DNA of 64,000 nucleotides from sequence record OQ108497.1; one strand, given 5' to 3'. This stretch comes from Escherichia phage EC_OE_11. This document shows positions 6,831 through 63,879 of the stretch, in pieces. Position numbers and translations under genes: made by a program. Under the pieces are notes generated by a model. The model was given only the letters and a program-made list of their open reading frames with translations. It was not told where the DNA came from and did no database searches. Position 1 is the stretch's first letter; every line of letters begins with the position of its first letter.

Positions 6831-8792
6831 GTGATTTTAACACGTCCAAATAGTGCCATTGCAGACATGGTAGAGTCTCGCTATAGAAAGCGTAGAAGTT
6901 TTGCAAGTGGTTTTACCTTAAGAGATGCTCGTGAAGCATTGCTCTTTGAAGCTGACGGTAACTACTATCAGTGGAAAGGTTCTCTACCTAAAGTTGTACC
7001 TGCTAACTCTACTCCTACATCGACTGGAGGGATTTCAGATACAGCTTGGAAAAATGTGGGTAATGCAGATGACATTGCTCAAATAGAATCAGAATTAGAT
7101 GCTATTGAAGCTGAAATTGAAGATCTTAGAGAATCCATCCCAGAAGCTGGTAAATCAGCTTACCAGATTGCCGTAGACAATGGTTTCCAAGGTACTGAGA
7201 CAGAGTGGTTGGCTTCTTTAAAAGGTGATCCAGGTGCTCCATTAAAGCTATTAGGAACGCTGTCTAATACCAACCAATTACCTACAACTGGAAACAATGC
7301 AGGGGATGCATGGATTGTAGGCGAGAATATGTATGCTTGGGATGGTACTGCTTGGAGAAAAGTAAACTCACAGGGGCCAGAAGGTAAATCTGCTTATGAA
7401 GTATGGCTTGCAGCAGGAAACGAAGGTACAGAACTAGATTATCTTGCCTCAATTAAAGGTGATAAAGGGGAGCCTGGCCCAGAGGGGCCACAGGGTGTGC
7501 CAGGTAACAATGCTAATGGTTTTGATTACCAAGGTGCAGCTAATTCCGTTTCAGATCTTCCTTCTGCATCTCCTGGAAACACATCTCAAGCATGGAGTGT
7601 TGGTACATATCTATACGTGTCAAACGGTGTAGAATGGATCAATATGGGTGCTATAGTGGGGCCAAAAGGAGATAAAGGCGACAAAGGAGATAAGGGTAAC
7701 ACTGGTGATTCCGCTTATCAAGTCTGGTTAAATGCTGGTAACGTTGGTACTATTGACGAATATATTGCCTCTCTGAAAGGAGAAAAAGGTGATAAGGGAG
7801 ACAAGGGTGATCAAGGTGAGCAGGGTATACAAGGCTTGACGGGGCCAACTGGCGCAGGGTTGACCATTATTGATATTCTGACTAACACTTCTGAACTACC
7901 ACAAACTGGAGAAGATGGTGATGGTTATCTGATCAATAATGAACTTTGGGTCTGGTTGCAAGGAGCCACAGAGTGGACAAATGTTGGTCGTTTAGCTGGT
8001 ACTCCAATCACTGCAAAAGGACACGTTGCGTCTGCAAGTGCACTTCCTCCTACAGCCAATTACGGTGATGCTTATCTGACGGAAGATACAGGTCATCTTT
8101 ACATTTACACCTATGATGAACAAACTCAAACTGCTGAATATGTAGATATGGGTAGTTTGAAAGGCGATAAGGGTGAAAAAGGTGACGCTGGTACTAATGG
8201 TACAGACGGTGCAACTTGGATTGTTAAAACAACAGATCCAATCTCTAGTGATGGTAAACAAGGTGATTATGCCTTTAATATCTCCACTGGCGAGGTGTTC
8301 TTAAAAACATCTGCAACTGTCTGGACTTCTCAAGGTACACTACCTAGCATTACAGATGCACCTAGTGACGGTAAAATTTATGCTCGTAAAGATGGAGCAT
8401 GGGAAGAACTCACTAGTTCTGTAGATGGTCAAGATATAGTTCCAACAAAAGTAACAACTAATTTTATAGAGGTTACAGCATATACCAACAATTCTGTTAC
8501 AGGTGACTGGACACCTCCAGGAACACATAACATGAATGTGTTGAATCTTACTGGTAACTCTACTATAAAAGCATGGCCTGGTGTCGAAGATAGCACAAAA
8601 CCTAAACCATTCTCTGCAATAGTTTATCTTATCCAAGATGCCACTGGAGGTCGTACTGTTACTTTAGATCCATCTTATAAAGTAATTGGTTCTAGTGATA
8701 TTAATACAGATCCTAACGGAGTAACAATACTACAACTAACATATTGTGGTGTTGGCGATTACGTGGATGCTATTGTTGCTAAACGCACATAA
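6831..8792 (+). CDS. tail fibre protein with collagen-like G-X-Y repeats and phage fibre repeats
   Basis: 653 aa, GTG start after AAAGGAG; GPKGDKGDKGDKGNTGD and GEKGDKGDKGDQGEQGIQGLTGPTG collagen-like runs; three copies of KSAYxxxxxxGxxGTExxxLASLKG, the known phage tail-fibre repeat. Confidence 0.65.
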   Translation: MILTRPNSAIADMVESRYRKRRSFASGFTLRDAREALLFEADGNYYQWKGSLPKVVPANSTPTSTGGISDTAWKNVGNADDIAQIESELDAIEAEIEDLRESIPEAGKSAYQIAVDNGFQGTETEWLASLKGDPGAPLKLLGTLSNTNQLPTTGNNAGDAWIVGENMYAWDGTAWRKVNSQGPEGKSAYEVWLAAGNEGTELDYLASIKGDKGEPGPEGPQGVPGNNANGFDYQGAANSVSDLPSASPGNTSQAWSVGTYLYVSNGVEWINMGAIVGPKGDKGDKGDKGNTGDSAYQVWLNAGNVGTIDEYIASLKGEKGDKGDKGDQGEQGIQGLTGPTGAGLTIIDILTNTSELPQTGEDGDGYLINNELWVWLQGATEWTNVGRLAGTPITAKGHVASASALPPTANYGDAYLTEDTGHLYIYTYDEQTQTAEYVDMGSLKGDKGEKGDAGTNGTDGATWIVKTTDPISSDGKQGDYAFNISTGEVFLKTSATVWTSQGTLPSITDAPSDGKIYARKDGAWEELTSSVDGQDIVPTKVTTNFIEVTAYTNNSVTGDWTPPGTHNMNVLNLTGNSTIKAWPGVEDSTKPKPFSAIVYLIQDATGGRTVTLDPSYKVIGSSDINTDPNGVTILQLTYCGVGDYVDAIVAKRT

Positions 8793-26004: not shown

Positions 26005-26799
26005 TTACGCTTTTGCTCCAAATTTTTTAACCCACTCGCCAAACTCTTCGGATAACAGTTTATCGTAAAGTTCTTCATCAGACAAGGACAAATCTGCAAT
26101 ACCGATAAAATCAACATTATCGTACTCTTTTGCCAAGTCTTTCAGGAATTTAAAGTTTGCATTACCTACACCAACCATAAACCAGTAAACAGGTGTATTG
26201 CGGTGTTTGTTCAGCAAGCTACGTACTGCTGAAGTATCCATGTTCTCCCCGTCAGTTTGGAAGAAAATCATTGCAGGAGTACGATCAACTTGTGCATTAG
26301 TATCTACAACCTGTTCTACAACAGTACGTGTAACTTGTACAAGTTCTTTTTTACCAGTTAGTTTAGCAAGGAAACCTTTAGCCGGAACTTCTTCATACTC
26401 AACGACTTCGCGTGTAATATTTTTCATAGGTACACTGCCGAAGTATGTATCATAAATCTCTTGCATTACTGGAGCATAAGCTGTACCACCGTTGATGCAA
26501 ACATTAGACATGCAAGAGCCGACATAATCATCATACACATCAGCCGTTGCAGGAGGCAGTTCAAAAGAAGAACTATTGAAAGCCCACATGTCAATCTGTG
26601 CATTATCATCAAACTTCATACCAAACGGCAGCAGTTTACCTACAAAATCACTAACAGTGCCATCACGATACAGTTCACACATACTGCCCGAAATATCTAA
26701 GGCGCTACCGACACGAAGAACAACATCGTTAATCTTTTTCTTACGCAGAGATACAGTAAGAGTTTCTTGACGTTTTTTAAGACTGATTTTATTGGACAT
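26005..26799 (-). CDS. von Willebrand factor A (vWA) domain protein, TerY-like
   Basis: 264 aa; MIDAS motif LDISGSM; vWA-size domain; adjacent to TerD-like gene. Confidence 0.6.
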   Translation of the reverse strand: MSNKISLKKRQETLTVSLRKKKINDVVLRVGSALDISGSMCELYRDGTVSDFVGKLLPFGMKFDDNAQIDMWAFNSSSFELPPATADVYDDYVGSCMSNVCINGGTAYAPVMQEIYDTYFGSVPMKNITREVVEYEEVPAKGFLAKLTGKKELVQVTRTVVEQVVDTNAQVDRTPAMIFFQTDGENMDTSAVRSLLNKHRNTPVYWFMVGVGNANFKFLKDLAKEYDNVDFIGIADLSLSDEELYDKLLSEEFGEWVKKFGAKA

Positions 26800-52899: not shown

Positions 52900-53110
52900 T
52901 ATTTTGAAAATTTTTACTTTTATAAAAAGGGGTGTGGGTTTCATGTACGGAAATCCACCCTCTGAATAATATATCCAGAGTAAATATTATTCTGTACTCT
53001 GTTAATAAAGTATTTAATTTGTTTGTTGGACTATGGTATCTGATCTTTAAAAGGCATACTATCTCTTAACTACTATTTATAACAGAACAGTAAAATCATT
53101 TTTATAAAAA

Positions 53111-53320
53111 GGACAAAATTATTTAAAGTTTTTACAGATTTTTGGATACAAATTTTGAAAATGAAAAGTTCAAGTTTGGTCAAAATTATTTAAAGTTTTT
53201 GTACGTATTTCTATCCAGATTTTGAAAATGAAAACTTCAATTTTTTAAAAATTCCCCAGTTTATTTAAAGTTTTTTTGCCTTTTTCCGTAGAAAAATCAA
53301 AAATGAAAAGTTCAATTTCG
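53111..53320. repeat. three tandem ~70 bp AT-rich direct repeats (iteron-like)
   Basis: Each unit has ATTATTTAAAGTTTTT (at about 53118, 53184, 53260) and TTTGAAAATGAAAAGTTCAA (at about 53152, 53220, 53296); no ORF across 52900-53340. Confidence 0.6.
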
Positions 53321-53335
53321 TGTTTTTATAGGTGT

Positions 53336-53460
53336 GCGTATGATAATCATTCTCATTTGTAAATGAGAATCATTATCATTTAATTATGTAAGTGATAATC
53401 ATTCTCAGTAAGAGAATGAGAATCATTAGCAAATGAGAATTTTTCTCATTTAGAGAATAA
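53336..53460. promoter_or_regulatory. cluster of Fur-box-like palindromic operator sites
   Basis: TGATAATCATTCTCATT, AATGAGAATCATTATCATT, GTGATAATCATTCTCA, GAATGAGAATCATTAGC and the perfect palindrome AAATGAGAATTTTTCTCATTT; close to the enterobacterial Fur consensus GATAATGATAATCATTATC. Confidence 0.45.
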
Positions 53461-53684
53461 CGCGCAGGGGTGGTGTTTGTCTCGCGCTCCCGTGTCCCTC
53501 GCCATACAATAAGAATAGCATAACCAACAACAAAAGCAAGCGATTATTTTTATCTTTACATTTCTTTACAAATTTATTTTAGACGAGCTACCGGCGATCA
53601 ACCTTCCAACCAGTGCCCCTGGTATGTTAGCCCCGCCTTTACGCCGTGGGGGTGGCGCTTCCTCTTCTGTATGTAAAACAGTAT

Positions 53685-53724
53685 AAGCCCGATCCCTGGG
53701 CTTGTCAAGATTATTTTTTGTTTT
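53685..53724 (+). terminator. candidate rho-independent terminator in GC-rich island
   Basis: AAGCCCGATCCCTGGGCTT hairpin followed by TTATTTTTTGTTTT. Confidence 0.35.
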
Positions 53725-54087
53725 CTTGCCAGGAAAGGACACCTAACCAAAAATACATATCGCCCCGCGCCCCTGGCGGGATCTTGCTTTCCCCGCCGCC
53801 ACTGCAAGCCCATAAATAACCATCAGCGAACGGATCAAAATGTTCTATCTCTTCCACCTTATGATCGCCCAGGTTGAGAACGGTTTCAACCTTTAAGCCC
53901 GTTGCGCTTGCTACCTGGTGCACCGTGCCGCCTTGCCAGCCCAATGAGTGCATGAGATGTAAAGGAGTATTTGTCATGGTATCGCCCTTTCTTTGATGTG
54001 CGCCCTGGTTGGCGCGGTAGAAAGATAATAGCCGTTTCCTTTATAGATAGCAAGCAAAAAGAAATGAAAAAAAGATTAAAAAATGGT

Positions 54088-54116
54088 TGACGTTCCTCAC
54101 CTGGTAGCGTAGTATT
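54088..54116 (+). promoter_or_regulatory. sigma70-like promoter
   Basis: TTGACG - 17 nt - TAGTAT. Confidence 0.4.
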
Positions 54117-54242
54117 CATCTTGTCGAGGGGGGCAAGGCACAACGACAATAAACAATAGGCGGGTGCAATGCAGGACGGGCAAAGGTGAGGATCTCCACA
54201 ATCCACCGTCACAATAACATTACTTATAAAAGGTTGATAACG

Positions 54243-54338
54243 ATGATCAAGAAAGAAAACAGCTTGACGGTTGGAACGATTAACGCTATCATTCTAGCCG
54301 TTCCATTTTGGATTGTAGTAGCGGTTGTTATTTTCTAA
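54243..54338 (+). CDS. small hydrophobic peptide (31 aa)
   Basis: MIKKENSLTVGTINAIILAVPFWIVVAVVIF; AAAAGG upstream; about 120 nt structured leader from promoter at 54088. Confidence 0.3.
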   Translation: MIKKENSLTVGTINAIILAVPFWIVVAVVIF

Positions 54339-54347
54339 AAAATATTC

Positions 54348-54405
54348 TTGACAACGTTTTTTAATCTGATAAGATGTATCACATAGGGCGGCAATAGTGC
54401 CGCTC
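54348..54405 (+). promoter_or_regulatory. early promoter with leader hairpin
   Basis: TTGACA (54348) - 16/17 nt - TAAGAT, then CATAGGGCGGCAATAGTGCCGC hairpin about 25 nt before ATG. Confidence 0.5.
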
Positions 54406-54427
54406 ATAACAGAAGAGAGAAATAATC

Positions 54428-54700
54428 ATGGCATCATATAGCGCATCAATGATCGTAACGGGCATGACTGGTAAACCTATGCGCGGTGGCGGATCTTTCG
54501 CTAACATCAATATTGATGGGCGTTTATCCCTGGATGCAGCGATCACCGTGGCACGGGAAACATTTAAAAAAGAATGTAATTTCAATAAACAAGATTATCT
54601 CGGCTTCGTTATTGAAAAAACCGCGCGCTTTGTTGATTATAAAAGCCCGAAAATGATCGACACTACACTAAAAGCGCAAGATGTAGCATTTTTGCTTTAA
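54428..54700 (+). CDS. hypothetical early protein
   Basis: 90 aa ORF behind promoter-hairpin and AGAAGAGAGA RBS. Confidence 0.4.
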   Translation: MASYSASMIVTGMTGKPMRGGGSFANINIDGRLSLDAAITVARETFKKECNFNKQDYLGFVIEKTARFVDYKSPKMIDTTLKAQDVAFLL

Positions 54701-54703
54701 GGC

Positions 54704-54763
54704 TTGACACTGAAAAATAATTTAGTAATATATACCACATAGGGCGGGAAATGGTTTCCCGCC
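54704..54763 (+). promoter_or_regulatory. early promoter with leader hairpin
   Basis: TTGACA - 16 nt - TAATAT, then GGCGGGAAATGGTTTCCCGCC hairpin. Confidence 0.5.
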
Positions 54764-54785
54764 AAATCAAAGAAAGGGTAACACA

Positions 54786-55148
54786 ATGAGCAAGCAAATC
54801 AATACTATCATGTTAAACCTGGTATCTTTCCGCGATGACGTGAAAAATCTTTCGCGTGATGCAGTGGATGCACGGATCGAAAGCTATCGCACACAGATCG
54901 CGACATTACCGTTAAAACGTGATCAACATGCCGCTAATATGATGCTTGATGCTATGATTAAAAAGATGATTCAATGTGATCTTACCCTGGCTTATGAATA
55001 TGCTGGCGATCTTTTTGTAACGTATAATAAACCCGTTCCAGGTATGAGCACCACGGAAGAATTGCATGCCTTAAATCTGCGACAAGATGCATGGGATAAC
55101 ATGCGCCGTGTTATGGTATGGGTAGAAAGCGGTAAAATTTACGAATAA
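54786..55148 (+). CDS. hypothetical early protein
   Basis: 120 aa ORF behind promoter-hairpin. Confidence 0.4.
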   Translation: MSKQINTIMLNLVSFRDDVKNLSRDAVDARIESYRTQIATLPLKRDQHAANMMLDAMIKKMIQCDLTLAYEYAGDLFVTYNKPVPGMSTTEELHALNLRQDAWDNMRRVMVWVESGKIYE

Positions 55149-55154
55149 AAACGG

Positions 55155-55208
55155 TTGACATTGCACGAAAACCTGATAAGCTATCTTAAAGCGGGAATTG
55201 TTCCCGCT
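55155..55208 (+). promoter_or_regulatory. early promoter with leader hairpin
   Basis: TTGACA - 16 nt - TAAGCT, then AGCGGGAATTGTTCCCGCT hairpin. Confidence 0.5.
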
Positions 55209-55226
55209 TACATAGGATAAAACTTT

Positions 55227-55373
55227 ATGAAACAATATGTAATGAGTATCCACACCAAAAACGGCGCTACTGTTACGACTCCGGCACGGTTTGCACTTGT
55301 AAACCGTTGCAAGAGACTAAAACGAGAGTTAAAAAATAACCGTGCAACGGGCTTTAAACGCTGGGGAGGATAA
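55227..55373 (+). CDS. hypothetical small basic early protein
   Basis: 48 aa ORF (below track cutoff) directly behind promoter-hairpin. Confidence 0.3.
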   Translation: MKQYVMSIHTKNGATVTTPARFALVNRCKRLKRELKNNRATGFKRWGG

Positions 55374-55375
55374 TC

Positions 55376-55636
55376 TTGTTTTTTCTAAAAGTTTGTGATA
55401 ATGTGATCGCTTTTGAACATGCTACAACGTTCGACCTGGCGAGATACGCTATCAGGTTTAAAGATAATGTTTATCCCCGTGCTGGCGGCGGTTACACTAT
55501 TTTTAATCACCGTAACGCTCAATTAACGGATATAACTAATCCAGATCCTGGAGTGTATCGCATAGGCTGGCTACCGTCAAAAGACGCTGCAAGCATGTTT
55601 AAGGTGTGCAAACTACTAACAGAAGAGGCGAACTAA
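55376..55636 (+). CDS. hypothetical early protein
   Basis: 86 aa; TTG start in ORF track, GGAGG 6 nt upstream; an in-frame GTG downstream is an alternative start. Confidence 0.3.
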   Translation: MFFLKVCDNVIAFEHATTFDLARYAIRFKDNVYPRAGGGYTIFNHRNAQLTDITNPDPGVYRIGWLPSKDAASMFKVCKLLTEEAN

Positions 55637-55637
55637 C

Positions 55638-56192
55638 ATGGGGCGTGAATATGTGATCCAGTCCTGGGTAAAGCATGATGCTAATGATCCGCGCATAATA
55701 CCAGATGACATGATCGATCACATGGTAGGGTATAGCGGGGAGCAGATAGGAAATCGAGCGGCAAAGAGCAACGGCAACACCAGGACGCGATCCGTTCGCC
55801 CTGGATGGCTGGCGAATGGTAACGCTGACATTGCAAGCGCCGCAGATCCAAGCGATGACGCTAAAAATAATCCCTTATACAGCATTGATCCGGCTTTTAA
55901 GGTGTTAGAAGAGTATCCCGCTAAATTAGCCGCACTAGATAAGGCATACGAAGAAAAGCGCATGGCATGGACTGTATACAACACCGCTAAAATGGTGCTA
56001 GATGCAAAATTGATTAAAGCCCAGGAGAAGATCAATAAACTTGTTACCATAGCGCAAGAGGAAGACCAGGACTACCAGGAGGAAGCGGAAGAAATCATGC
56101 CTACTCTGGAAGAGGAAGAGATCCAGCCATACATGCCGACGGAAGAGGAAAAAAGACAAGCCCTAAAAAATTATGAAAATTGCATTGTGTAA
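55638..56192 (+). CDS. hypothetical early protein with acidic C-terminal region
   Basis: 184 aa; start overlaps upstream stop; Glu-rich tail. Confidence 0.4.
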   Translation: MGREYVIQSWVKHDANDPRIIPDDMIDHMVGYSGEQIGNRAAKSNGNTRTRSVRPGWLANGNADIASAADPSDDAKNNPLYSIDPAFKVLEEYPAKLAALDKAYEEKRMAWTVYNTAKMVLDAKLIKAQEKINKLVTIAQEEDQDYQEEAEEIMPTLEEEEIQPYMPTEEEKRQALKNYENCIV

Positions 56193-56195
56193 GGC

Positions 56196-56251
56196 TTGAC
56201 ATAGGCAAACAAGCCCCGTAATATGTACCACATAAAGCGGGGCAACGCCCC
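56196..56251 (+). promoter_or_regulatory. early promoter with leader hairpin
   Basis: TTGACA - 17 nt - TAATAT, then GCGGGGC-AAC-GCCCC hairpin. Confidence 0.45.
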
Positions 56252-56273
56252 ATAAGGTGAAATAAAAAATCAC

Positions 56274-56301
56274 TTGACACCTGAAATCAGTAAGCTATAA
56301 T
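56274..56301 (+). promoter_or_regulatory. early promoter (no hairpin)
   Basis: TTGACA - 16 nt - TATAAT consensus. Confidence 0.5.
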
Positions 56302-56338
56302 GCTTATATAGATTGAAACATTACTAAGGAATAAAAGC

Positions 56339-56518
56339 ATGGCTATTATTGCAAAGACTGAGATCGTAGGTTTAGATTCTATCATCCTGGCATATGAGGA
56401 AGCTATAGAAATGTATGTGGTTTCCTATGGTGATTATATCCGTGAATATAAATCTATTGATCTAGCTTTTGAATGCTATATTCGCCAGGTCAATAAAGCA
56501 TATGATGATTATCGTTAA
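56339..56518 (+). CDS. hypothetical small early protein
   Basis: 59 aa ORF (below track cutoff) behind tandem promoters. Confidence 0.3.
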   Translation: MAIIAKTEIVGLDSIILAYEEAIEMYVVSYGDYIREYKSIDLAFECYIRQVNKAYDDYR

Positions 56519-56537
56519 AAGTTTTAGTCTTGTGCTA

Positions 56538-56566
56538 TTGACAACGAACGATAGTACAAGCATAAT
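56538..56566 (+). promoter_or_regulatory. early promoter
   Basis: TTGACA - 17 nt - CATAAT. Confidence 0.45.
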
Positions 56567-56613
56567 AACTTTTATCGGGAATACTCCTAACTAATCAAAA
56601 GAGATTAAAGACT

Positions 56614-56979
56614 ATGGCTAAAAATATCAATGTTTCTGCTTATGCTACCCTGGCTAACACTGCTAAAATTGAACTATCCAGCATTGAAGCGGTACATATT
56701 AGCGCCCGTCGCTGGTTTCAAAAGTCTTATGGTAATACTTATTTCTCTTTGATGGTTGACGTTGAGATCGGCGGTAAACTGATCGAAGTAGTTAACGTTC
56801 CGTTTCAATATGGTTATGGGGATCATTTTGATACCGTTGCCCTAGAAGAGTTTAGCAAGGTTATCAACCTGGAAGGTAAAGACTTTTCAAATTATGCTTA
56901 CCTTTCCCGCTTTTGCCGTGATAATGGGATCGCTGTATACAGTCATGCAAGCGATGTAAAACGTAAAAAAGATTTATAA
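56614..56979 (+). CDS. hypothetical early protein
   Basis: 121 aa. Confidence 0.4.
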   Translation: MAKNINVSAYATLANTAKIELSSIEAVHISARRWFQKSYGNTYFSLMVDVEIGGKLIEVVNVPFQYGYGDHFDTVALEEFSKVINLEGKDFSNYAYLSRFCRDNGIAVYSHASDVKRKKDL

Positions 56980-56985
56980 AAAGCA

Positions 56986-57044
56986 TTGACAGCACGAATA
57001 AAAAGCATATAATACTTATATCGAGAGCGGGAATAGTTCCCGCC
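56986..57044 (+). promoter_or_regulatory. early promoter with leader hairpin
   Basis: TTGACA - 16 nt - TATAAT, then AGCGGGAATAGTTCCCGCC hairpin. Confidence 0.55.
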
Positions 57045-57067
57045 TCACTGAAAAAGAGATTAACATC

Positions 57068-57307
57068 ATGGCTAAATCTAAAATGTACAACGGTCACAAA
57101 AATAAAACTCATTGGAATGTAAGCCTTTGGATTAATAATGATGAATCGTTATACTTATACGCTGTAGGTTTAATAAATGAGTGCGGCAATAAAGATAAAG
57201 CGGCGGATCTGATGTGCTACAGATTAAAACAGGATGGAATCACTCATACACCTGATGGTTTCAAGTATAGTAAAACTGCAATCCGTGCCGCTATGGTAGG
57301 AATGTAA
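57068..57307 (+). CDS. hypothetical early protein
   Basis: 79 aa. Confidence 0.4.
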   Translation: MAKSKMYNGHKNKTHWNVSLWINNDESLYLYAVGLINECGNKDKAADLMCYRLKQDGITHTPDGFKYSKTAIRAAMVGM

Positions 57308-57316
57308 TAAAAGCAG

Positions 57317-57376
57317 TTGACAACGTTTTTTAATCTGGTATAGTTTATCGCATAGGGCGGGAAATGGTTTCCCGCC
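57317..57376 (+). promoter_or_regulatory. early promoter with leader hairpin
   Basis: TTGACA - 16 nt - TATAGT, then GGCGGGAAATGGTTTCCCGCC hairpin. Confidence 0.55.
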
Positions 57377-57398
57377 AAATCAAAGAAAGGTTATCATT

Positions 57399-57626
57399 AT
57401 GGCTATCGTTATTGTTCGCGTATCCGGCACGGTTGGAATCTCCCAGGTAGTAGCAGTTATCACCGAGAAGAAAGGGGATGATCTTCACTCCTCATTGAAT
57501 AGCTGGGCGGTCGCTAACTTTGGGCAATGGTCGAGCGTTGAGTACATCGAATCCTACCAGGTGCCAACGATTAGCCTGACCGATCTCAACGTTGATCGTC
57601 TGTTATGCCTGGATCAATTAAACTAA
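57399..57626 (+). CDS. hypothetical early protein
   Basis: 75 aa. Confidence 0.4.
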   Translation: MAIVIVRVSGTVGISQVVAVITEKKGDDLHSSLNSWAVANFGQWSSVEYIESYQVPTISLTDLNVDRLLCLDQLN

Positions 57627-57635
57627 AAATAATAT

Positions 57636-57692
57636 TGACAAGACAACTAAAATTAGTAAAATGTAATTCATAGGGCGGCAATAGTGCCGCCC
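57636..57692 (+). promoter_or_regulatory. early promoter with leader hairpin
   Basis: TTGACA - 16 nt - TAAAAT, then GGCGGCAATAGTGCCGCC hairpin. Confidence 0.55.
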
Positions 57693-57713
57693 CTAGTAAG
57701 AGAGATTATCAAA

Positions 57714-57929
57714 ATGGCTAATATCCGCACCTTGTTAAAAAATGCAAAGCAAGTTTTATTTTCAGATGACGAGTATTTCAACAAAGACATTACAGGCGTG
57801 AAAAATTTAAAAGACGTGAAGGATGTTATCGGTATCCGTGGATCTTTACGTAAAGGTGACATATACGGTAACAAGGTGCAATATAAACTGTCAAAAGATT
57901 ATGATTTTACTTTGACAATTATTTCATAA
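57714..57929 (+). CDS. hypothetical early protein
   Basis: Start set at ATG 57714 (MANIRTLL); ORF-track start 57684 lies inside the leader hairpin. Confidence 0.4.
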   Translation: MANIRTLLKNAKQVLFSDDEYFNKDITGVKNLKDVKDVIGIRGSLRKGDIYGNKVQYKLSKDYDFTLTIIS

Positions 57930-57974
57930 AACTACTTGTAAACCTGGTAAAATAAAGTAAACTATATTCATCAA

Positions 57975-57996
57975 GGCGGTGGAATAGCCCACCGCC
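57975..57996 (+). promoter_or_regulatory. leader hairpin (promoter unclear, possible extended -10)
   Basis: GGCGGTGG-AATAG-CCCACCGCC; upstream TGGTAAAAT may be an extended -10; no clean -35. Confidence 0.35.
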
Positions 57997-58020
57997 TAAC
58001 AAAGAGAAGAGGAAAATATC

Positions 58021-58191
58021 ATGATCACTTTCGCTACCCGTGAAGCCGCTCGCAACGTTGCACGTAAAGTTAACGCCGCAAACCTGGGCGCTACGCTTAA
58101 AGCCCCGGTGAAAGATGAATCAGGAAAATGGATCTTTCCTGGTCTGCGTCACGCTGATAAGCTGGGAACATTAACGTTAAAAAATAAATAA
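58021..58191 (+). CDS. hypothetical small early protein
   Basis: 56 aa ORF (below track cutoff). Confidence 0.3.
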   Translation: MITFATREAARNVARKVNAANLGATLKAPVKDESGKWIFPGLRHADKLGTLTLKNK

Positions 58192-58198
58192 TATCCGC

Positions 58199-58257
58199 TT
58201 GACAGTAGCATCATTTATAAGTAAAGTAACAACAACGGCGGGAAATGGTTTCCCGCC
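58199..58257 (+). promoter_or_regulatory. early promoter with leader hairpin
   Basis: TTGACA - 17 nt - TAAAGT, then GGCGGGAAATGGTTTCCCGCC hairpin. Confidence 0.55.
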
Positions 58258-58277
58258 ATCAATAAAGAGATAAGATT

Positions 58278-58637
58278 ATGAAATCAGTAAAAGCAATTAA
58301 AACTTACATTGTGTCGGCTATTTCTTTTGATGGTACTACAACCGAAAAAGAAAAAATCACCGAACTGATGCGCCGTTTTAACTCTGAATACTGGTATCAA
58401 TCTAATCGTGATCGTTATAATAACAATATGGTACAAGCTGTTAAAAGCTGGTTGCAAGGTTTACCGTCAGATATCAATATCGCTTTTAATTATAACGAGA
58501 TCGATCAATTATTAATTGAATGGAAGTACATAAAAGAAACAAGCAAAGAAACAACCGTTACCCGTGAGCGGGAAAATTATTGGTTATATATTGCAAGCAT
58601 GATCGTAACTTTGGCAAAATATCATAACGTAGCGTAA
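58278..58637 (+). CDS. hypothetical early protein
   Basis: 119 aa. Confidence 0.4.
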   Translation: MKSVKAIKTYIVSAISFDGTTTEKEKITELMRRFNSEYWYQSNRDRYNNNMVQAVKSWLQGLPSDINIAFNYNEIDQLLIEWKYIKETSKETTVTRERENYWLYIASMIVTLAKYHNVA

Positions 58638-58651
58638 TCGAGAGGAAAAAC

Positions 58652-58789
58652 ATGAACGCATCACAGCAGATCGAAAAATTCAACCGCAACAAAGCGCGTA
58701 AAGATTGGAACGAAGAGATCACCAAGAAAGGCGACAAGCGGAACAAAACAAAGAGAGATCGCAGCAGCAAAAGATACTGGAACGAATAA
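58652..58789 (+). CDS. hypothetical small basic protein
   Basis: 45 aa Lys/Arg-rich ORF, GAGAGG RBS, followed by terminator. Confidence 0.3.
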   Translation: MNASQQIEKFNRNKARKDWNEEITKKGDKRNKTKRDRSSKRYWNE

Positions 58790-58791
58790 CA

Positions 58792-58817
58792 AAAAAGGGC
58801 GCAATAAGCGCCCTTTT
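58792..58817 (+). terminator. rho-independent terminator
   Basis: GGGCGC-AATAA-GCGCCC then TTTT. Confidence 0.6.
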
Positions 58818-58907
58818 AGCTTATATAGGGGCTTGTTAGTTATAGGCAATGGTAACGCCAGGATAAGCCTATAAACCACGTTAGACAGCTTTACAGGAGC
58901 TTTAAAA

Positions 58908-59090
58908 ATGAAATTAGACGAAATAAGCAAGGCACTAGCCCAGGGGCAAAGGTTATGCGCCCGATATCGTGATCAATATGGCTTTATAACTAGCGGCGTG
59001 ATCCTGGGGATTGAAGACAATAAAATTTTTATTGACACGTGGAAAAACGTTGTATATAGTGACAATATAATCTCAATAAAACATATATGA
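58908..59090 (+). CDS. hypothetical early protein
   Basis: 60 aa; AGGAG RBS. Confidence 0.3.
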   Translation: MKLDEISKALAQGQRLCARYRDQYGFITSGVILGIEDNKIFIDTWKNVVYSDNIISIKHI

Positions 59091-59098
59091 GGCAAGAA

Positions 59099-59500
59099 AT
59101 GAAAAAATTATTGATCGCTGGTTTACTCTCTTTTGGTATGGTTGGAACATCTAGCGCGGCGATATCCTCCACAGTAGCAGAATTAAGCGCCGTTGATGCA
59201 ATGGAAAACGTCATGATCATTAATAATGCGATCCCCGATGAAATCATGGAGGATTCACACATGATCGCTTATGGTGCTATTACACAACTGACGGCAAAAA
59301 TAGATAAATCTATTGTTAATGGCTTAAATGAAGATGTACCATGCGAAATTATTACCAGTGTGCTCACTACTCAAAATTTTACGCCGTGGTTAAAAAGTAT
59401 TCAAAAAGTACACAGTACAGCCGCAGATCGTAGCAATGAAAAACTAGTGTCAGCACTTGCAACGTATACCCTAGCAAAATGTACTGAAATAAAAGATTGA
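59099..59500 (+). CDS. hypothetical secreted protein
   Basis: Start set at ATG 59099 (MKKLLIAGLLSFGMVGTSSAA signal peptide). Confidence 0.4.
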   Translation: MKKLLIAGLLSFGMVGTSSAAISSTVAELSAVDAMENVMIINNAIPDEIMEDSHMIAYGAITQLTAKIDKSIVNGLNEDVPCEIITSVLTTQNFTPWLKSIQKVHSTAADRSNEKLVSALATYTLAKCTEIKD

Positions 59501-59525
59501 CAACATAGAAAGCACGTTATAAGAT
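59497..59525 (+). promoter_or_regulatory. early promoter
   Basis: TTGACA - 17 nt - TAAGAT. Confidence 0.45.
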
Positions 59526-59547
59526 ACACACAACAAAGGAGAACTAC

Positions 59548-59850
59548 ATGAACGGCATAGCTAAAACGTTTTTTCTTTTTTCTGGTGTAAATGATCCATC
59601 AATAAAAGTCGATAGCGTAAAAGAAAACAATACTATCACCGCTAAATTATTTCAAGATGAAACAAATAACGTGCTAATCATTAATCTTAAAGAAATAACA
59701 AAAGGTTATTATACTATTGCTTACCATGCGATCTATAATGCTGATACTAGTGAGGAAGTGCAAACAAGCAACAACGAAAGCGCGGCGCTACCTGGTGATC
59801 TGGTGCTGGGCGTTATCAGTTTAATTGTCAATGATTTTTTTAAGGAGTAA
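59548..59850 (+). CDS. hypothetical early protein
   Basis: 100 aa; AAAGGAG RBS. Confidence 0.4.
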   Translation: MNGIAKTFFLFSGVNDPSIKVDSVKENNTITAKLFQDETNNVLIINLKEITKGYYTIAYHAIYNADTSEEVQTSNNESAALPGDLVLGVISLIVNDFFKE

Positions 59851-59854
59851 AACC

Positions 59855-59950
59855 ATGCCCTATTTACATTTATTTTTCGGTATCTTATTGACAGGATCTT
59901 TTTTCTTCTGTATGCTTGTTTCTATTGTAAACCACGTTTTAAGACATTAA
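59855..59950 (+). CDS. small hydrophobic peptide (31 aa)
   Basis: MPYLHLFFGILLTGSFFFCMLVSIVNHVLRH with GGAG RBS; below track cutoff. Confidence 0.3.
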   Translation: MPYLHLFFGILLTGSFFFCMLVSIVNHVLRH

Positions 59951-59959
59951 GGAAACAGC

Positions 59960-60079
59960 ATGAAAATTATTCCCGTACAGTATAGCGTAATAAATCCAGC
60001 ATATGAGGAAGGAAGGAAAACAAGCATGGCTTTATGTTGTATTGCTACTATAACCATGTTGTTATACATTGTGTTTTAA
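59960..60079 (+). CDS. small peptide with hydrophobic C-terminus (39 aa)
   Basis: MKIIPVQYSVINPAYEEGRKTSMALCCIATITMLLYIVF; AAGGAAAC upstream. Confidence 0.25.
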   Translation: MKIIPVQYSVINPAYEEGRKTSMALCCIATITMLLYIVF

Positions 60080-60108
60080 TAGGTTTTATAGTTGTACGCT
60101 TTAAAGGC

Positions 60109-60136
60109 TTGACAATTTTTTGTTATGCTTTAAAAT
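60109..60136 (+). promoter_or_regulatory. early promoter
   Basis: TTGACA - 16 nt - TAAAAT. Confidence 0.5.
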
Positions 60137-60179
60137 ATATCTTGAAAACGGCAAAGGCCGCAAACAAAAGGGTAAAATT

Positions 60180-60503
60180 ATGAAATCTGTGATCGGTGTT
60201 TATTTGGATAACTCTGATTTTTTCTATCATCGCGCTCGTTTCCTTGATGCGATTGAAATGATAGAATCAGGCTTTAAAGAGTATCGCCTTGCACATGATG
60301 ACCTGGAAGCATTACAGGACAATAGTGTTTTTACATTGCAAGCTAAAGCACTATGCAAAAGCCGGATCGACATTGCAAGCAAAAAGATAGAACGCGGCAT
60401 GTCCTGGTTGCGCACCGCAGAAATCAACATGGGGCAATGGTACGGCGAAAACTTAGAAAATAAACACACTTTTGTAAATGTAGAAAATATTAAAGATTAT
60501 TGA
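60180..60503 (+). CDS. hypothetical early protein
   Basis: Start set at ATG 60180 (MKSVIGVYL). Confidence 0.4.
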   Translation: MKSVIGVYLDNSDFFYHRARFLDAIEMIESGFKEYRLAHDDLEALQDNSVFTLQAKALCKSRIDIASKKIERGMSWLRTAEINMGQWYGENLENKHTFVNVENIKDY

Positions 60504-60566
60504 TTGACAGCACACCTGATAAGTAATATATTGTATCTCATAGAGCGGGGAAATGGTTTCCCCGCC
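60504..60566 (+). promoter_or_regulatory. early promoter with leader hairpin
   Basis: TTGACA - 17 nt - TATATT, then GCGGGGAAATGGTTTCCCCGC hairpin. Confidence 0.55.
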
Positions 60567-60585
60567 TTAACAGAAGAGATAAGAT

Positions 60586-60870
60586 ATGAAGATCACAAAA
60601 GCACTTTCCAACTATGCAGCACGTCGCGGCTTATGTTTAACCGTTGAAAACCTGGGGAAAGAAGATTTTTTGTGCTTTTGGGAGCTTGAGAATGATAATG
60701 AGTGGATCTTCTCTTATTCTATCTGCGAAGATCAAAACGGTTGTTTATTAACCTGGCGCGGTAATATCTATTTACCGCAAGAAATCAAAGAGGAACTACC
60801 AGGCACGATCATGACTGAGAAACAGCTTAAGGAAGTGATCAATTTTGTAGGGCAAAACATTAAAAAATAA
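60586..60870 (+). CDS. hypothetical early protein
   Basis: 94 aa. Confidence 0.4.
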   Translation: MKITKALSNYAARRGLCLTVENLGKEDFLCFWELENDNEWIFSYSICEDQNGCLLTWRGNIYLPQEIKEELPGTIMTEKQLKEVINFVGQNIKK

Positions 60871-60871
60871 T

Positions 60872-60931
60872 TTGACACTAGGCAAACAACGTAGTAAAGT
60901 TTATCACATAGGGCGGGAAATGGTTTCCCGC
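60872..60931 (+). promoter_or_regulatory. early promoter with leader hairpin
   Basis: TTGACA - 17 nt - TAAAGT, then GGGCGGGAAATGGTTTCCCGCTC hairpin. Confidence 0.55.
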
Positions 60932-60954
60932 TCACAGTAGAAGAGAAACAAATC

Positions 60955-61125
60955 ATGATCCCAACTATGTTTTATGTATCGCGCAAAGGTCACAATATTT
61001 TTTGGTCTGAAGATTTAAATGAAGCCATGACGTTTGCCCGTGATCGTGTTGCTATTGGTGGCGTTAATATCACTGTAACCGATGAAAATGGCATTGAATA
61101 CTATAACGGCGACGATGAAGAGTAA
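60955..61125 (+). CDS. hypothetical small early protein
   Basis: 56 aa ORF (below track cutoff). Confidence 0.3.
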   Translation: MIPTMFYVSRKGHNIFWSEDLNEAMTFARDRVAIGGVNITVTDENGIEYYNGDDEE

Positions 61126-61132
61126 TTAATGA

Positions 61133-61154
61133 GGCGGGGGGAGTATTCCCCGCC
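61133..61154 (+). promoter_or_regulatory. leader hairpin without recognisable promoter
   Basis: GGCGGGGGGAGTATTCCCCGCC directly upstream of RBS of ORF 61174; no TTGACA/TATAAT pair. Confidence 0.4.
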
Positions 61155-61173
61155 GTCAATAAAGAGATAAATC

Positions 61174-61443
61174 ATGAAAATATCATTAGACGTTGCAATC
61201 AAGGCCATCGAATCCGGTTACATCCTGGTAAAAGATGATAAGGCTAAAACCGTGCACCACGTTAACAAGGAAACAGGCGAAAGCATGATCACATATAAAG
61301 CCGCCTACTTTCTCCAATCAGTAGCAGATCCGCGCGTACAACGCCAGGTTACAGCGGCTATTGCTAAAAAATTATGTGCTTTACAGGGCACAAGTTTTAA
61401 CGAGATCGCCCCGTGTTTTGACTGGTCGAGCTTGAAAAAATAG
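61174..61443 (+). CDS. hypothetical early protein
   Basis: 89 aa. Confidence 0.4.
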   Translation: MKISLDVAIKAIESGYILVKDDKAKTVHHVNKETGESMITYKAAYFLQSVADPRVQRQVTAAIAKKLCALQGTSFNEIAPCFDWSSLKK

Positions 61444-61444
61444 T

Positions 61445-61500
61445 TTGACAACAATTATAAATCGGGTAGAATGTATTTCGTAGGGCGGCAATAGTGCCGC
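61445..61500 (+). promoter_or_regulatory. early promoter with leader hairpin
   Basis: TTGACA - 16 nt - TAGAAT, then GGCGGCAATAGTGCCGC hairpin. Confidence 0.55.
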
Positions 61501-61523
61501 TCACAACTAAAAGAGAAATCATC

Positions 61524-61718
61524 ATGGCGCTTAAAAAATTAACAAGCAATACTCGTTGGGATGAAATCGACGGGGAAGTATACATTTTCGCCCGTAAACC
61601 AGGTGATCAAAAATGGTCAAAGGCTTTTACTTGCCACCCTGCAACAATAGATCTAATAAAAAGTAAAGGTTTACGTGAAGCAGTAGCAAGGAGCTTACTG
61701 ATCCCTTATAAAAAATAG
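61524..61718 (+). CDS. hypothetical early protein
   Basis: Start set at ATG 61524 (MALKKLTSN). Confidence 0.4.
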   Translation: MALKKLTSNTRWDEIDGEVYIFARKPGDQKWSKAFTCHPATIDLIKSKGLREAVARSLLIPYKK

Positions 61719-61719
61719 T

Positions 61720-61781
61720 TTGACAATACGCGGTTATCTGGTAAAGTGTACGACATAGGGCGGGGCAATAAGGCAACGCCC
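61720..61781 (+). promoter_or_regulatory. early promoter with leader hairpin
   Basis: TTGACA - 16 nt - TAAAGT, then GGGCG-GGGCAATAAGGCAA-CGCCC hairpin. Confidence 0.5.
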
Positions 61782-61799
61782 ACTAATGAGGGTAAAATC

Positions 61800-61904
61800 A
61801 TGTTAGAGAAAATTTTCACGGTTGTAGTAGTGGGCCTGGCGTTATCGGTTGGAGTGATTGCAACTATGGCTAACATGATCCTATCTTCCCACGGTATTGG
61901 ATAA
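61800..61904 (+). CDS. small hydrophobic peptide (34 aa)
   Basis: MLEKIFTVVVVGLALSVGVIATMANMILSSHGIG, single predicted TM helix. Confidence 0.3.
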   Translation: MLEKIFTVVVVGLALSVGVIATMANMILSSHGIG

Positions 61905-61914
61905 GGTGAATCAA

Positions 61915-62130
61915 ATGATCACGAATAAGACAGGTAAAACAGAATTTTTACGCGGCTTGCAAATAGGTAAACCTGAAATCTGGCATTGCACTAAAACACC
62001 ACGTGACGAAATGAAAGATTTCACCGCTACTTTACAACGTGTTAAAATATCTATCACACAGAAAAAAGCCTTGTTAGTAGTAGAAAACGAGATCCCGCAA
62101 ACCATTATTATTGTTGAGCGTACAGCATGA
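61915..62130 (+). CDS. hypothetical early protein
   Basis: Start set at ATG 61915 (MITNKTGK) behind AAGGTGA. Confidence 0.35.
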   Translation: MITNKTGKTEFLRGLQIGKPEIWHCTKTPRDEMKDFTATLQRVKISITQKKALLVVENEIPQTIIIVERTA

Positions 62131-62513
62131 AAACAGAAATCATTATTGAAATCATCAACGGTTATAAAGAAGCCTTTATTTTTGCTGAATCCGCCAGGGA
62201 TCATGAAGGTAATTTTATTGATAACTTAGACGATTATGATTTTTCAGATCAAGCCCATCAGCGGATTATACGTGACGTGGCGGCGTTTTGTGATGCCAAT
62301 GATGCCGCTATCTCTGAGGCAATGAGCGACGGCGCAACAGCCAACCAGATCGGGAATGATTTACATTTTACCCGTAATAGTCACGGCGTAGGCTTTTGGG
62401 ATCGCCCTGAAATATACACTACTAACACCGCCAACCGCTTAACTAATGCAGCTAAATTGATGCCATCGGTGCATGCTTACATTGGTGAAGATAATTTGAT
62501 TTATATTGAATAA
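62127..62513 (+). CDS. hypothetical early protein (acidic)
   Basis: 128 aa; ATGA overlap with upstream gene. Confidence 0.4.
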   Translation: MKTEIIIEIINGYKEAFIFAESARDHEGNFIDNLDDYDFSDQAHQRIIRDVAAFCDANDAAISEAMSDGATANQIGNDLHFTRNSHGVGFWDRPEIYTTNTANRLTNAAKLMPSVHAYIGEDNLIYIE

Positions 62514-62519
62514 AAAGTA

Positions 62520-62578
62520 TTGACACCGATCCCCAATATGGTATGATTTACCACGTAGGCGGGAAATGGTTTCCCGCC
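62520..62578 (+). promoter_or_regulatory. early promoter with leader hairpin
   Basis: TTGACA - 16 nt - TATGAT, then GGCGGGAAATGGTTTCCCGCC hairpin. Confidence 0.55.
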
Positions 62579-62601
62579 AGGTAATCAAAAAGGTAAATAC
62601 T

Positions 62602-62991
62602 ATGCGCAACCTGGTTTCTGTTTCTAACGTTGAAAAATTTCAATCCTTGCAGGGTATCGTTAACAACGTAGCGCCTTTTTTAGTCAATGGCTTGATTGCA
62701 AAGATGAAGAATAAACATCATGCGGCATGGTCTGCTTACTGCTTTGATAATGATGAAAAAGCGGCTGAAATGATGTTAAATATGCTGTTAGATAGTGTAG
62801 AATCATCTTTACCGGAAAACATCGCAGAAGAGATCACCTATCGTTATAATATGGCGATCACTTACCAGGAAGTGGCGCAATTTAATATGATGGATGATGA
62901 CGAACAACAGGATCAGGAAATTTTCTGGGAGTATGCAGATCGTCAATCAGCTTTTGATGAAAAATTAGCGATGTATTATAACGAATATTAA
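62602..62991 (+). CDS. hypothetical early protein
   Basis: Start set at ATG 62602 (MRNLVSVS); ORF-track start 62566 lies inside the hairpin. Confidence 0.4.
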   Translation: MRNLVSVSNVEKFQSLQGIVNNVAPFLVNGLIAKMKNKHHAAWSAYCFDNDEKAAEMMLNMLLDSVESSLPENIAEEITYRYNMAITYQEVAQFNMMDDDEQQDQEIFWEYADRQSAFDEKLAMYYNEY

Positions 62992-63005
62992 TACACGGTA
63001 AAAGA

Positions 63006-63031
63006 AAGGGGCGCACTAAGCGCCCTTTTTT
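63006..63031 (+). terminator. rho-independent terminator
   Basis: GGGCGC-ACTAA-GCGCCC then TTTTTT. Confidence 0.65.
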
Positions 63032-63377
63032 GTATTCTTTTTTTCACGATGGAAACAACACGTAAAGAATAGGCGTAAAGGTGGCGTAAAACCATCTAAA
63101 ACCGACTGTAACCGCTTAAACAAGGTAGGAATGATTAATCACCTTACCAGGATGAAAAAGCTGTTAGAGAGCTATTCAGAGCGTTTAAAGCACATAGGAA
63201 ATAATTTGCTTTTTATCTTGCCTTTTATCCTGCTTTTGATTATTATTATGGAACGGGCGGCACCTGGGGACAGGGGAAGATAATCACCGGAAGATCCCGC
63301 TATATATTAATAGCTAATACCTATTAAACAACAAAACATCAAAGGTATAAACTATCAAATCTTTACAATTCTACCTA

Positions 63378-63406
63378 TTGACACCGGATCACGCTTACAC
63401 TATTAT
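63378..63406 (+). promoter_or_regulatory. early promoter (degenerate hairpin)
   Basis: TTGACA - 17 nt - TATTAT, then CACGTAGGGC remnant of the leader motif. Confidence 0.45.
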
Positions 63407-63452
63407 TTATCACGTAGGGCAAATCATTTTAAACGGTAAACGAGGAATCACC

Positions 63453-63836
63453 ATGAGCAATATCATCAACCTGGCAGCGACTGTAAACGGTAAAGACTTT
63501 AACGGCGCTGTAGACCGTGATCCTATGTGGTGCTTGTCAGTGTTTAAAGGCGATCTGGTTGAAGTTAGAACAACCGAAGGTTATAGCGACGATTATAAAT
63601 GCGAGATCCATTTACATAACTGGTACACGGGGAAAACTTATGCGCTGAATCACGCGTTTATCGGGAAAATTGAATATCGCGAGATGATCGACGAAGAAAC
63701 GGGGCAAGATTTTAGCGATTATGTTTATATCCGTTCAGAAACATTAGCCGAACGTTTGATCGAGAAAATGAAAGCAAAAAATAAAATTAATTTATCTCAT
63801 TGGATTGATATAACAAACGATCCTGCTTATCAGTAA
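63453..63836 (+). CDS. hypothetical early protein
   Basis: Start set at ATG 63453 (MSNIINLAA); ORF-track start 63378 is the TTGACA hexamer itself. Confidence 0.4.
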   Translation: MSNIINLAATVNGKDFNGAVDRDPMWCLSVFKGDLVEVRTTEGYSDDYKCEIHLHNWYTGKTYALNHAFIGKIEYREMIDEETGQDFSDYVYIRSETLAERLIEKMKAKNKINLSHWIDITNDPAYQ

Positions 63837-63851
63837 ATAACATTTCATACC

Positions 63852-63879
63852 AGGGCGCACAAAGCGCCCTTTCTTTTTA
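63852..63879 (+). terminator. rho-independent terminator
   Basis: GGGCGC-ACAAA-GCGCCC then TTTCTTTTT. Confidence 0.6.

Follow-up and report, generated by a model that had tools for sequence, protein, structure and literature searches.

The cassette block and its leader hairpins

The 64-kb window from Escherichia phage EC_OE_11 (the whole stretch of DNA analysed here) belongs to a Justusliebigvirus, a phi92-like E. coli myophage with a genome of roughly 145 kb, and harbours between 54.3 and 62.6 kb a repeated composite element of ~85 bp, termed here the cassette, upstream of small genes of unknown function (Table 1; cassettes are named by their first position). The cassette consists, in this order, of an A/T-rich stretch, a TTGACA hexamer, a spacer of 16-17 nucleotides (nt), a -10 hexamer, the motif CATAG, a GC hairpin with a stem of 7-10 bp, and a purine-rich leader of about 20 unstructured nt that ends at an ATG. 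The A/T-rich region 5' of the -35 hexamer includes an upstream stop codon, with an A+T content of 76% over the 25 nt preceding the hexamer versus 61% in the block, and a Shine-Dalgarno (SD) sequence with the ATG closes the element at its 3' end. Specifically, the hairpin starts 9-14 nt past the -10 hexamer and ends 18-23 nt 5' of the ATG, and the purine-rich ribosome-binding site (RBS) lies 5-12 nt 5' of the ATG.

The first-pass annotation counted at least 14 such cassettes between 54.3 and 63.5 kb. The repeat is real and far beyond chance, but the present tally amounts to 12 clear cassettes (promoter, hairpin, RBS and ATG) plus about four degenerate or atypical copies and reaches 62.6 kb; besides the clear ones, the hairpin loci comprise two atypical cassettes, one promoter and hairpin devoid of a gene, one degenerate remnant, and one promoterless copy. 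Exact TTGACA hexamers occur 21 times on the + strand at 54.3-63.5 kb, out of 37 in the entire window, and most of those in the block have a TAnnnT hexamer 16-17 nt downstream, with 10-12 of the 12 promoter positions matched in most copies; by sequence match, a strong sigma-70-like promoter is present in each copy. Promoters are also found in the block without a hairpin (56274, 59032, 59497, 63378). The pattern GGCGG-N6-14-CCGCY has 21 matches at 13 loci, all at 53.8-62.6 kb, when shuffled sequences lead one to expect 0.13, and YRTAGGGCGG has seven versus 0.08 expected. Moreover, a folding energy of -14 kcal/mol or lower is attained by 14 of 21 leaders, whereas only 4.5% of the non-cassette 48-nt windows of the block reach -12 kcal/mol; single-leader folding z-scores range from -3.3 to -5.7. 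The cassette stems attain -14 to -19 kcal/mol, and the folds from the likely start to the AUG consist of a short 5' tail (2-4 nt), a single hairpin and a fully open purine-rich stretch, leaving the RBS unpaired in all of them.

The position of the hairpin is locked with respect to the promoter. All 85 promoter-linked leader hairpins collected from 10 loci in four phage groups have a stem that starts 8-14 nt past the -10 hexamer, and in 58 of them the distance is 10-11 nt, in agreement with the earlier placement of the hairpin in the predicted 5' leader and not in the promoter. Judging from the sequence, host sigma-70 RNA polymerase would start about 7-8 nt past the -10 hexamer; the likeliest site is the A of CATAG, a pyrimidine-purine step 8 nt past the hexamer. 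The leader RNA would then begin AUAGGGCGG and enter the hairpin after 3-4 nt, its first ~25 nt folding into the GC hairpin behind a predicted 5' tail of about 2-5 nt, followed by about 20 unstructured purine-rich nt with the RBS up to the AUG. With such a start, the hairpin lies near the 5' end of the transcript and not, as had been proposed, at its extreme. The copy at 61133-61154, previously singled out as a hairpin devoid of a promoter, is confirmed as such, and about 18 promoterless modules of hairpin and RBS occur in relatives, each directly behind a stop codon. The promoterless copies and the constant distance between hairpin and AUG point to a sub-module made of hairpin and RBS.

Exchange at the cassettes and resemblance to promoter-early stem-loops

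The segment 54300-62600 of the window is 99.1% identical to Escherichia phage JohannJBalmer (Bas62, MZ501084; Justusliebigvirus, Stephanstirmvirinae) and about 95% identical to other phi92-like phages, Phapecoctavirus aligns at about 86% identity over half the length, split into 7-8 pieces, and rV5-like and 350-kb Asteriusvirus phages match it in short stretches only. In total, 285 phage records match the segment, in ever smaller pieces, and the gene content of the block differs among relatives. Against nine relatives, 66 of 101 BLAST segment ends fall within cassettes; as for the unique breakpoints, 27 of 42 do so in a region of which cassettes occupy 19% (p about 1e-10), nine of the 42 lie inside hairpins, and several of those outside cassettes are located at most 10 nt upstream of a -35 hexamer. 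Adjacent BLAST segments overlap within cassettes, and the gene order is permuted between Justusliebigvirus and Phapecoctavirus.

Individual cassettes bear the marks of the same process. Cassette 57317 is chimeric: its promoter half matches that of cassette 54348 at 93% identity, and its leader half matches that of cassette 54704 at 87%. At cassette 60872, the surroundings are identical between the window and JohannJBalmer, but the former has GGGCGGGAAATGGTTTCCCGCTCACAGT and the latter GGGCGGCAATAGTGCCGCTCATAAC, which is the exact leader of cassette 54348; the swap is limited to the hairpin and about 6 nt after it (window 60911-60933, JohannJBalmer 26609-26636) and is, as read from the aligned genomes, a short-patch conversion between paralogous cassettes. 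These comparisons show that gene shuffling and hairpin conversion occur at position-locked composite repeats. Recombination-driven modular gene shuffling at the cassettes, which was absent from the first-pass annotation, is the strongest functional signal of the block, and among the comparative evidence it offers the best explanation of the repeated architecture.

A DUF7249 gene is common to Asteriusvirus JNE01 (355 kb; 5001-5156) and to ~145-kb phages (window 56986-57154; nieznany 8596-8700). Its 5' coding sequence is nearly identical in the two, whereas the hairpin of the cassette differs, implying the exchange of genes and cassettes across phage families.

The closest known kind of element is the promoter-early stem-loop (PeSL) cassette of T4-like phages, described in RB49/phi1, T4/PST and KVP40/nt-1 (Arbiol et al. 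2010, PMC2839356; Comeau et al. 2014, PMC4122927). In RB49/phi1, PeSLs composed of a strong sigma-70 promoter and a stem-loop flank ORFans in hyperplastic regions and mediate indels and replacements by recombination (PMC2839356; PMC4122927). Among PeSLs, recombination of neighbouring cassettes also gives rise to mini-circles that are encapsidated. The likeness extends to the repeat itself (~85-100 bp, with an A/T-rich stretch carrying the upstream stop, a sigma-70 promoter, a GC stem-loop, and SD plus ATG), to its clustering where small genes of unknown function form a plastic region, and to the location of the indel and replacement junctions of close relatives within cassettes, some of them chimeric. 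The differences concern the hosts of the element, which belong to the Stephanstirmvirinae (rV5-like and Asteriusvirus phages having analogues) and not to the Straboviridae, the stem consensus (GGCGG...CCGCC versus GGGG...CCCC), and above all the position of the hairpin. In the present phages, all 85 promoter-linked hairpins follow the -10 hexamer and are part of the predicted transcript; in the plastic region of RB49, analysed with the same code, 12 of 15 promoter-linked hairpins sit over the -35 and -10 hexamers or in the interval separating them, and only two are downstream. A rare PeSL class "downstream of the -10" was already listed by Arbiol 2010 (PMC2839356). A single cassette of the RB49 type stands among the leader-hairpin cassettes in Schickermooser (about 6890-6930) and SF1-1 (about 8855), where the palindrome TATAGCGCC-TTATAAT-GGGCGCTATAG encloses the -10 hexamer.

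A further difference from RB49 is that its stem-loop was reported as a terminator, lowering downstream lacZ expression as strongly as rrnB T1 (PMC2839356), a role for which the present hairpins are ill suited by sequence. A terminator or attenuator that shields each gene from upstream transcription, as in canonical PeSLs, would also fit the one orthologous hairpin annotated as an ARNold terminator in Schickermooser. Still, no T tract follows the family hairpin in any copy, the tails being A-rich with at most two T in 8 nt, and the hairpin spans about 4-25 nt past its own predicted start; efficient termination is unlikely because a stop ~25 nt past the start would shut off the very gene that the hairpin precedes. 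The terminators previously proposed at 58792, 63006 and 63852 were recovered in a terminator scan as the sole terminator-like sites (58793, 63003 and 63852), and they constitute a sequence family separate from the cassette hairpins. The shielding role is therefore very improbable, and the intrinsic, rho-independent terminator was rejected on sequence, the GC stem having no T run behind it.

The cassettes of the window are probably PeSL-type modular early-gene expression units, in a variant with a transcribed stem-loop. At the DNA level, the comparisons show that the ~85-bp repeats provide homology patches for recombination and short-patch conversion, and that exchange between them inserts, deletes, permutes and re-promotes small genes of unknown function, within and between phage groups. 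New here are the phage group and the presence of the hairpin within the transcribed leader of PeSL-like cassettes; the element itself is genuine, unannotated and highly non-random. PeSL-type shuffling would thereby no longer be confined to T4-like phages but also concern a large group of E. coli phages in therapeutic use, in a second architecture that keeps the stem-loop within the mRNA leader, and the cassettes would explain the strong divergence of a plastic "early" block between phages that are otherwise about 95% identical. Moreover, promoter, 5' hairpin and RBS make up compact natural parts that could be used for phage engineering.

Stem pairing, strand and possible roles of the hairpin

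Pairing was assessed in gapless loop-centred alignments of 63 distinct hairpins, 33 with odd and 30 with even loops, which replaced a whole-leader MAFFT alignment that misaligned the 3' arms. Standard pairs form in 87% of the stem cells, whereas shuffles give 71% and 64%; the signal collapses once the partner column is shifted, and the better-than-chance pairing that had been anticipated is borne out, as 0 of 500 shuffles reach the observed level. Both sides are changed in 8 of 10 and 8 of 9 pairs in the odd-loop and even-loop alignments, respectively. The statement that the two arms always change together is too strong as worded, given the G-U pairs, the bulged or irregular stem of cassette 61720 and the C-A mismatches in relatives; orthologues exhibit single-step states, namely G-U pairs, A-C or C-A mismatches, and slippage in G runs. 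Likewise, selection for compensatory changes, as first suggested, agrees with pairing across many stems but is weakened by whole-hairpin replacement and chimeras: since hairpins are replaced whole by short-patch conversion and cassettes are chimeric, co-variation is weaker evidence for stepwise compensatory selection, and the apparently compensatory arm changes come at least partly from whole-hairpin replacement. This calls for caution with repeated palindromes in general, in which copy-and-paste events, not compensatory mutation, can yield co-variation.

The two strands were compared by the mismatches that they tolerate and by the folding energy of + and -. Cells with G-U on the sense strand number 38, versus 16 with A-C, and in the metagenomic database IMG/VR 16 loops are in the normal orientation and none is flipped. 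The sense-strand G-U excess and the fixed loop orientation lean towards a strand-specific role at the RNA level, without proving it. Exact hairpin inversions relative to orthologues are rare, being present three times in PD114 (about 2467, 4675 and 7914) and once in SF1-1 (about 8855); arm-arm recombination, template switching or sequencing artefact are candidate causes.

These inversions, together with the replacement of whole hairpins between near-identical phages, the chimeric cassettes and the nine unique breakpoints inside hairpins, speak for an explanation confined to the DNA level, in line with the speculation of Arbiol 2010 that a recombination protein targets the GGGG...CCCC stem (PMC2839356). 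The palindromes would be hot spots of recombination or conversion, or quasi-palindromes that propagate themselves and travel with promoters, template switching and gene conversion keeping them perfect, and the RNA hairpin would be a functionless by-product. Such an explanation is rather unlikely. It does not predict the constant placement of 85 copies, drawn from four phage groups, with respect to the -10 hexamer as well as the ATG, nor the fixed orientation with favoured sense-strand G-U, the RBS that is always unpaired, or the many unrelated stem sequences that are all still paired; moreover, recombination requires homology and not a palindrome.

At the RNA level, the hairpin could alternatively be a nascent-RNA binding site for a phage or host protein, either for antitermination of the boxB/N kind or as a target for the shut-off or stabilisation of early mRNAs. 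Lambda nut sites are located just downstream of early promoters, and the hairpins have a comparable placement; an AAT(A/G)GT-like loop core is common to several stem classes in a fixed orientation, and several small "putative transcription factor" proteins are encoded downstream of the block in JohannJBalmer. Common descent and conversion can explain the shared core, though. Stems range from 4 to 10 bp and loops from 3 to 8 nt, loop sequences differ as well, and hairpins with flipped loops persist; no boxA-like partner motif is present, and no terminators lie between most cassettes. Searching the entire window against Rfam 15 yielded no match at gathering scores and just four chance-level matches at E-values up to 1. 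Recognition by a dedicated protein is, on balance, quite improbable.

For the PeSL-type units with a transcribed stem-loop, the RNA hairpin would most likely be an element of stability and insulation with little sequence dependence. The transcript that carries it would be less exposed to 5'-end-dependent decay, processed read-through RNA arriving from upstream would be capped at its 3' end, and the RBS would stay unpaired irrespective of the gene behind it. A role as stabiliser or RBS insulator is plausible, and the RNA interpretation put forward earlier is possible, albeit unproven. RppH prefers a purine at position 2 (PMC8833179), and the U predicted at +2 of the leaders is one hint in favour of such a role. 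The 5'-terminal stabiliser hairpins of E. coli mRNAs of the ompA and papA type, reportedly described by Emory, Bouvet and Belasco in 1992, are comparable in having a stable 5'-proximal stem-loop with little sequence requirement and an accessible RBS behind it; their stems begin within about 0-2, at most 2-4, unpaired nt of the 5' end. They differ in that the predicted tail of 2-5 nt is here at or past the limit of protection and in that the hairpin also occurs within polycistronic RNA with no promoter of its own. REP-type (repetitive extragenic palindromic) and other intercistronic stabilisers, or the boxB of lambda nut, share with the cassettes a short GC hairpin between cistrons or behind an early promoter, but have no sequence similarity to them; boxA is lacking here, and the copy number and the linkage to promoter and RBS are unlike either. 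An RNase III site was rejected since stems of 7-10 bp are too short, and an RNA thermometer or RBS sequestration was rejected because the RBS is unpaired in every fold. A hairpin that blocks RNase E scanning was likewise discarded, as simple orthogonal stem-loops are bypassed (PMC9943677).

Several considerations weigh against the PeSL-type reading and the stabilising role attached to it. Gene-wise exchange of any kind enriches breakpoints in intergenic DNA, which in this block consists of the cassettes. A hairpin finder supplied the rows of the pairing test, and the copies are related and non-independent; for the latter reason, and because C-A mismatches (wobbles on the other strand) also occur, the strand test leans towards the sense strand without being decisive. 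RppH and RNase E need at least two unpaired 5' nt and prefer at least three (PMC8833179), and a tail of 3-4 nt would still admit both enzymes. Since the predicted tail is 2-5 nt, 5' protection would be borderline and hinge on the true start site. Moreover, a scanning RNase E gets past simple stem-loops with ease (PMC9943677), so that any protection would rest wholly on the exact start. Lastly, the promoterless modules of the relatives show that the hairpin need not sit at a primary 5' end.

The sub-module of hairpin and RBS might instead be a dedicated signal and not a generic structure, a proposal that appears distinctly unlikely. In one version, an RNA tag would let the phage tell its own early mRNAs from those of the host through protection against phage-stimulated decay or a timed shut-off factor; in another, the hairpin would be a DNA target on which a structure-specific recombination activity acts, which would amount to integron-like exchange of gene cassettes among large E. 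coli myophages that are unrelated to one another (Stephanstirmvirinae, rV5-like phages and Asteriusvirus).

Distribution, annotation and surroundings of the block

A first covariance model (R1), built on a single hairpin class, missed the other classes and proved too specific, and a second one (R2) was therefore built from 33 diverse hairpins. Over 175 kb, made up of the window and the remainder of the JohannJBalmer genome, R2 finds the family solely at 54.38-62.58 kb of the window, its only match outside the block being an unrelated intergenic hairpin at 24.6 kb. An 82-nt cassette matches at least 130 phage records, in which the matched site has no annotation other than RBS marks. An equivalent layout with different stem sequences occurs in Phapecoctavirus, an rV5-like phage and a jumbo Asteriusvirus, and a hairpin scan of IMG/VR returned mostly matches from the same phage group. 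The 20-nt hairpin TAGGGCGGCAATGGTGCCGC is found once in each of three related GC-rich IMG/VR contigs (L014, L015 and L021; 36-61 kb), in an unrelated context devoid of promoter and A-rich leader, due to either chance or independent origin. The literature on phi92-, phAPEC8- and rV5-like phages lists promoters and terminators, and no description of the cassette was found in it; specifically, the rV5 paper lists 33 promoters and leaves hairpins unmentioned. Nineteen "Campylobacter phage" records (MG0656xx) are about 95% identical to the E. coli phage block, and their host labels look doubtful for this reason.

Table 1. Cassettes, related promoters and terminator-like sites of the block, in window coordinates
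Feature	Coordinates	Strand	Components
Clear cassette	54348..54430	+	-35 54348, -10 TAAGAT, hairpin 54386-54405 (GGGCGGCAATAGTGCCGCTC), AAGAGAGA, ATG 54428
Clear cassette	54704..54788	+	hairpin 54743-54763 (GGCGGGAAATGGTTTCCCGCC), ATG 54786
Clear cassette, weak RBS	55155..55229	+	hairpin 55189-55209 (AAGCGGGAATTGTTCCCGCTT), ATG 55227
Promoter and short hairpin, no own gene	56196..56341	+	hairpin 56239-56251 (GGGGCAACGCCCC)
Second promoter, perfect consensus, no hairpin	56274 (in 56196..56341)	+	ATG 56339
Promoter and degenerate hairpin remnant	56538..56616	+	remnant GGGAATACTCC, AAAGAGA, ATG 56614
Clear cassette, consensus promoter	56986..57070	+	hairpin 57027-57043 (GCGGGAATAGTTCCCGC), ATG 57068
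Clear cassette, chimeric	57317..57401	+	hairpin 57356-57376, ATG 57399
Clear cassette	57635..57716	+	hairpin 57673-57692 (GGGCGGCAATAGTGCCGCCC), ATG 57714
Clear cassette, weak -35 (TTGTAA)	57935..58023	+	hairpin 57974-57997 (AGGCGGTGGAATAGCCCACCGCCT), ATG 58021
Clear cassette	58199..58280	+	hairpin 58237-58257, ATG 58278
Terminator-like hairpin	58793..58817		A and T runs on both flanks; different family (AAAAGGGCGC...GCGCCCTTTT)
Promoter and short atypical hairpin	60109..60182	+	hairpin 60149-60160 (CGGCAAAGGCCG), 4-bp stem, ATG 60180
Clear cassette	60504..60588	+	hairpin 60545-60565 (GCGGGGAAATGGTTTCCCCGC), ATG 60586
Clear cassette	60872..60957	+	hairpin 60911-60933, ATG 60955
Promoterless hairpin and RBS module	61133..61176	+	hairpin 61133-61154 abutting upstream stop codon, ATG 61174
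Clear cassette	61445..61526	+	hairpin 61483-61502, ATG 61524
Cassette, irregular hairpin	61720..61802	+	hairpin 61758-61781 (GGGCG...CGCCC, large internal loop), ATG 61800
Clear cassette	62520..62604	+	hairpin 62558-62578, ATG 62602; ATG 62566 within hairpin loop
Intrinsic-terminator-like site, closes block	63003..63031	+	
Promoter without hairpin	63378..63455	+	leader start CGTAGGGC, ATG 63453
Intrinsic-terminator-like site after next gene	63852..63870	+	

In JohannJBalmer, the block is annotated as a + strand series of "hypothetical protein" genes followed by a tightly packed, operon-like run. All ten block open reading frames (ORFs) tested belong to PHROG families of unknown function, and in only one of them is a Pfam DUF recognised. 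The annotated starts of bas62_0132 (GTG) and bas62_0136 (ATG), equivalent to window positions 61494 and 62566, fall within hairpins, and the RBS-preceded ATGs at 61524 and 62602 are likelier starts; hairpin loops that contain ATGG or GTGC mislead gene callers. The cassettes flag two kinds of annotation error, namely hairpins called terminators and hairpins giving false GTG or ATG starts. The orthologues of the 71-amino-acid ORF at 57714-57929 are annotated as "phosphoribosylpyrophosphate synthetase", a name that is probably a propagated error because the protein is far too small.

The first of the two tandem promoters at 56196 is followed by just GTG-AAA-TAA in place of a gene, and this promoter and hairpin may be a cassette that remained after gene loss. 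Upstream of the block, about 1.4 kb (52900-54300) are nearly non-coding and contain GC hairpins at 53642-53797 and, at 53775-53797, a GGCGG...CCGCC hairpin whose loop measures 11 nt; promoter-like sites are present there on both strands, and the same region carries repeat_region features in phage muut.

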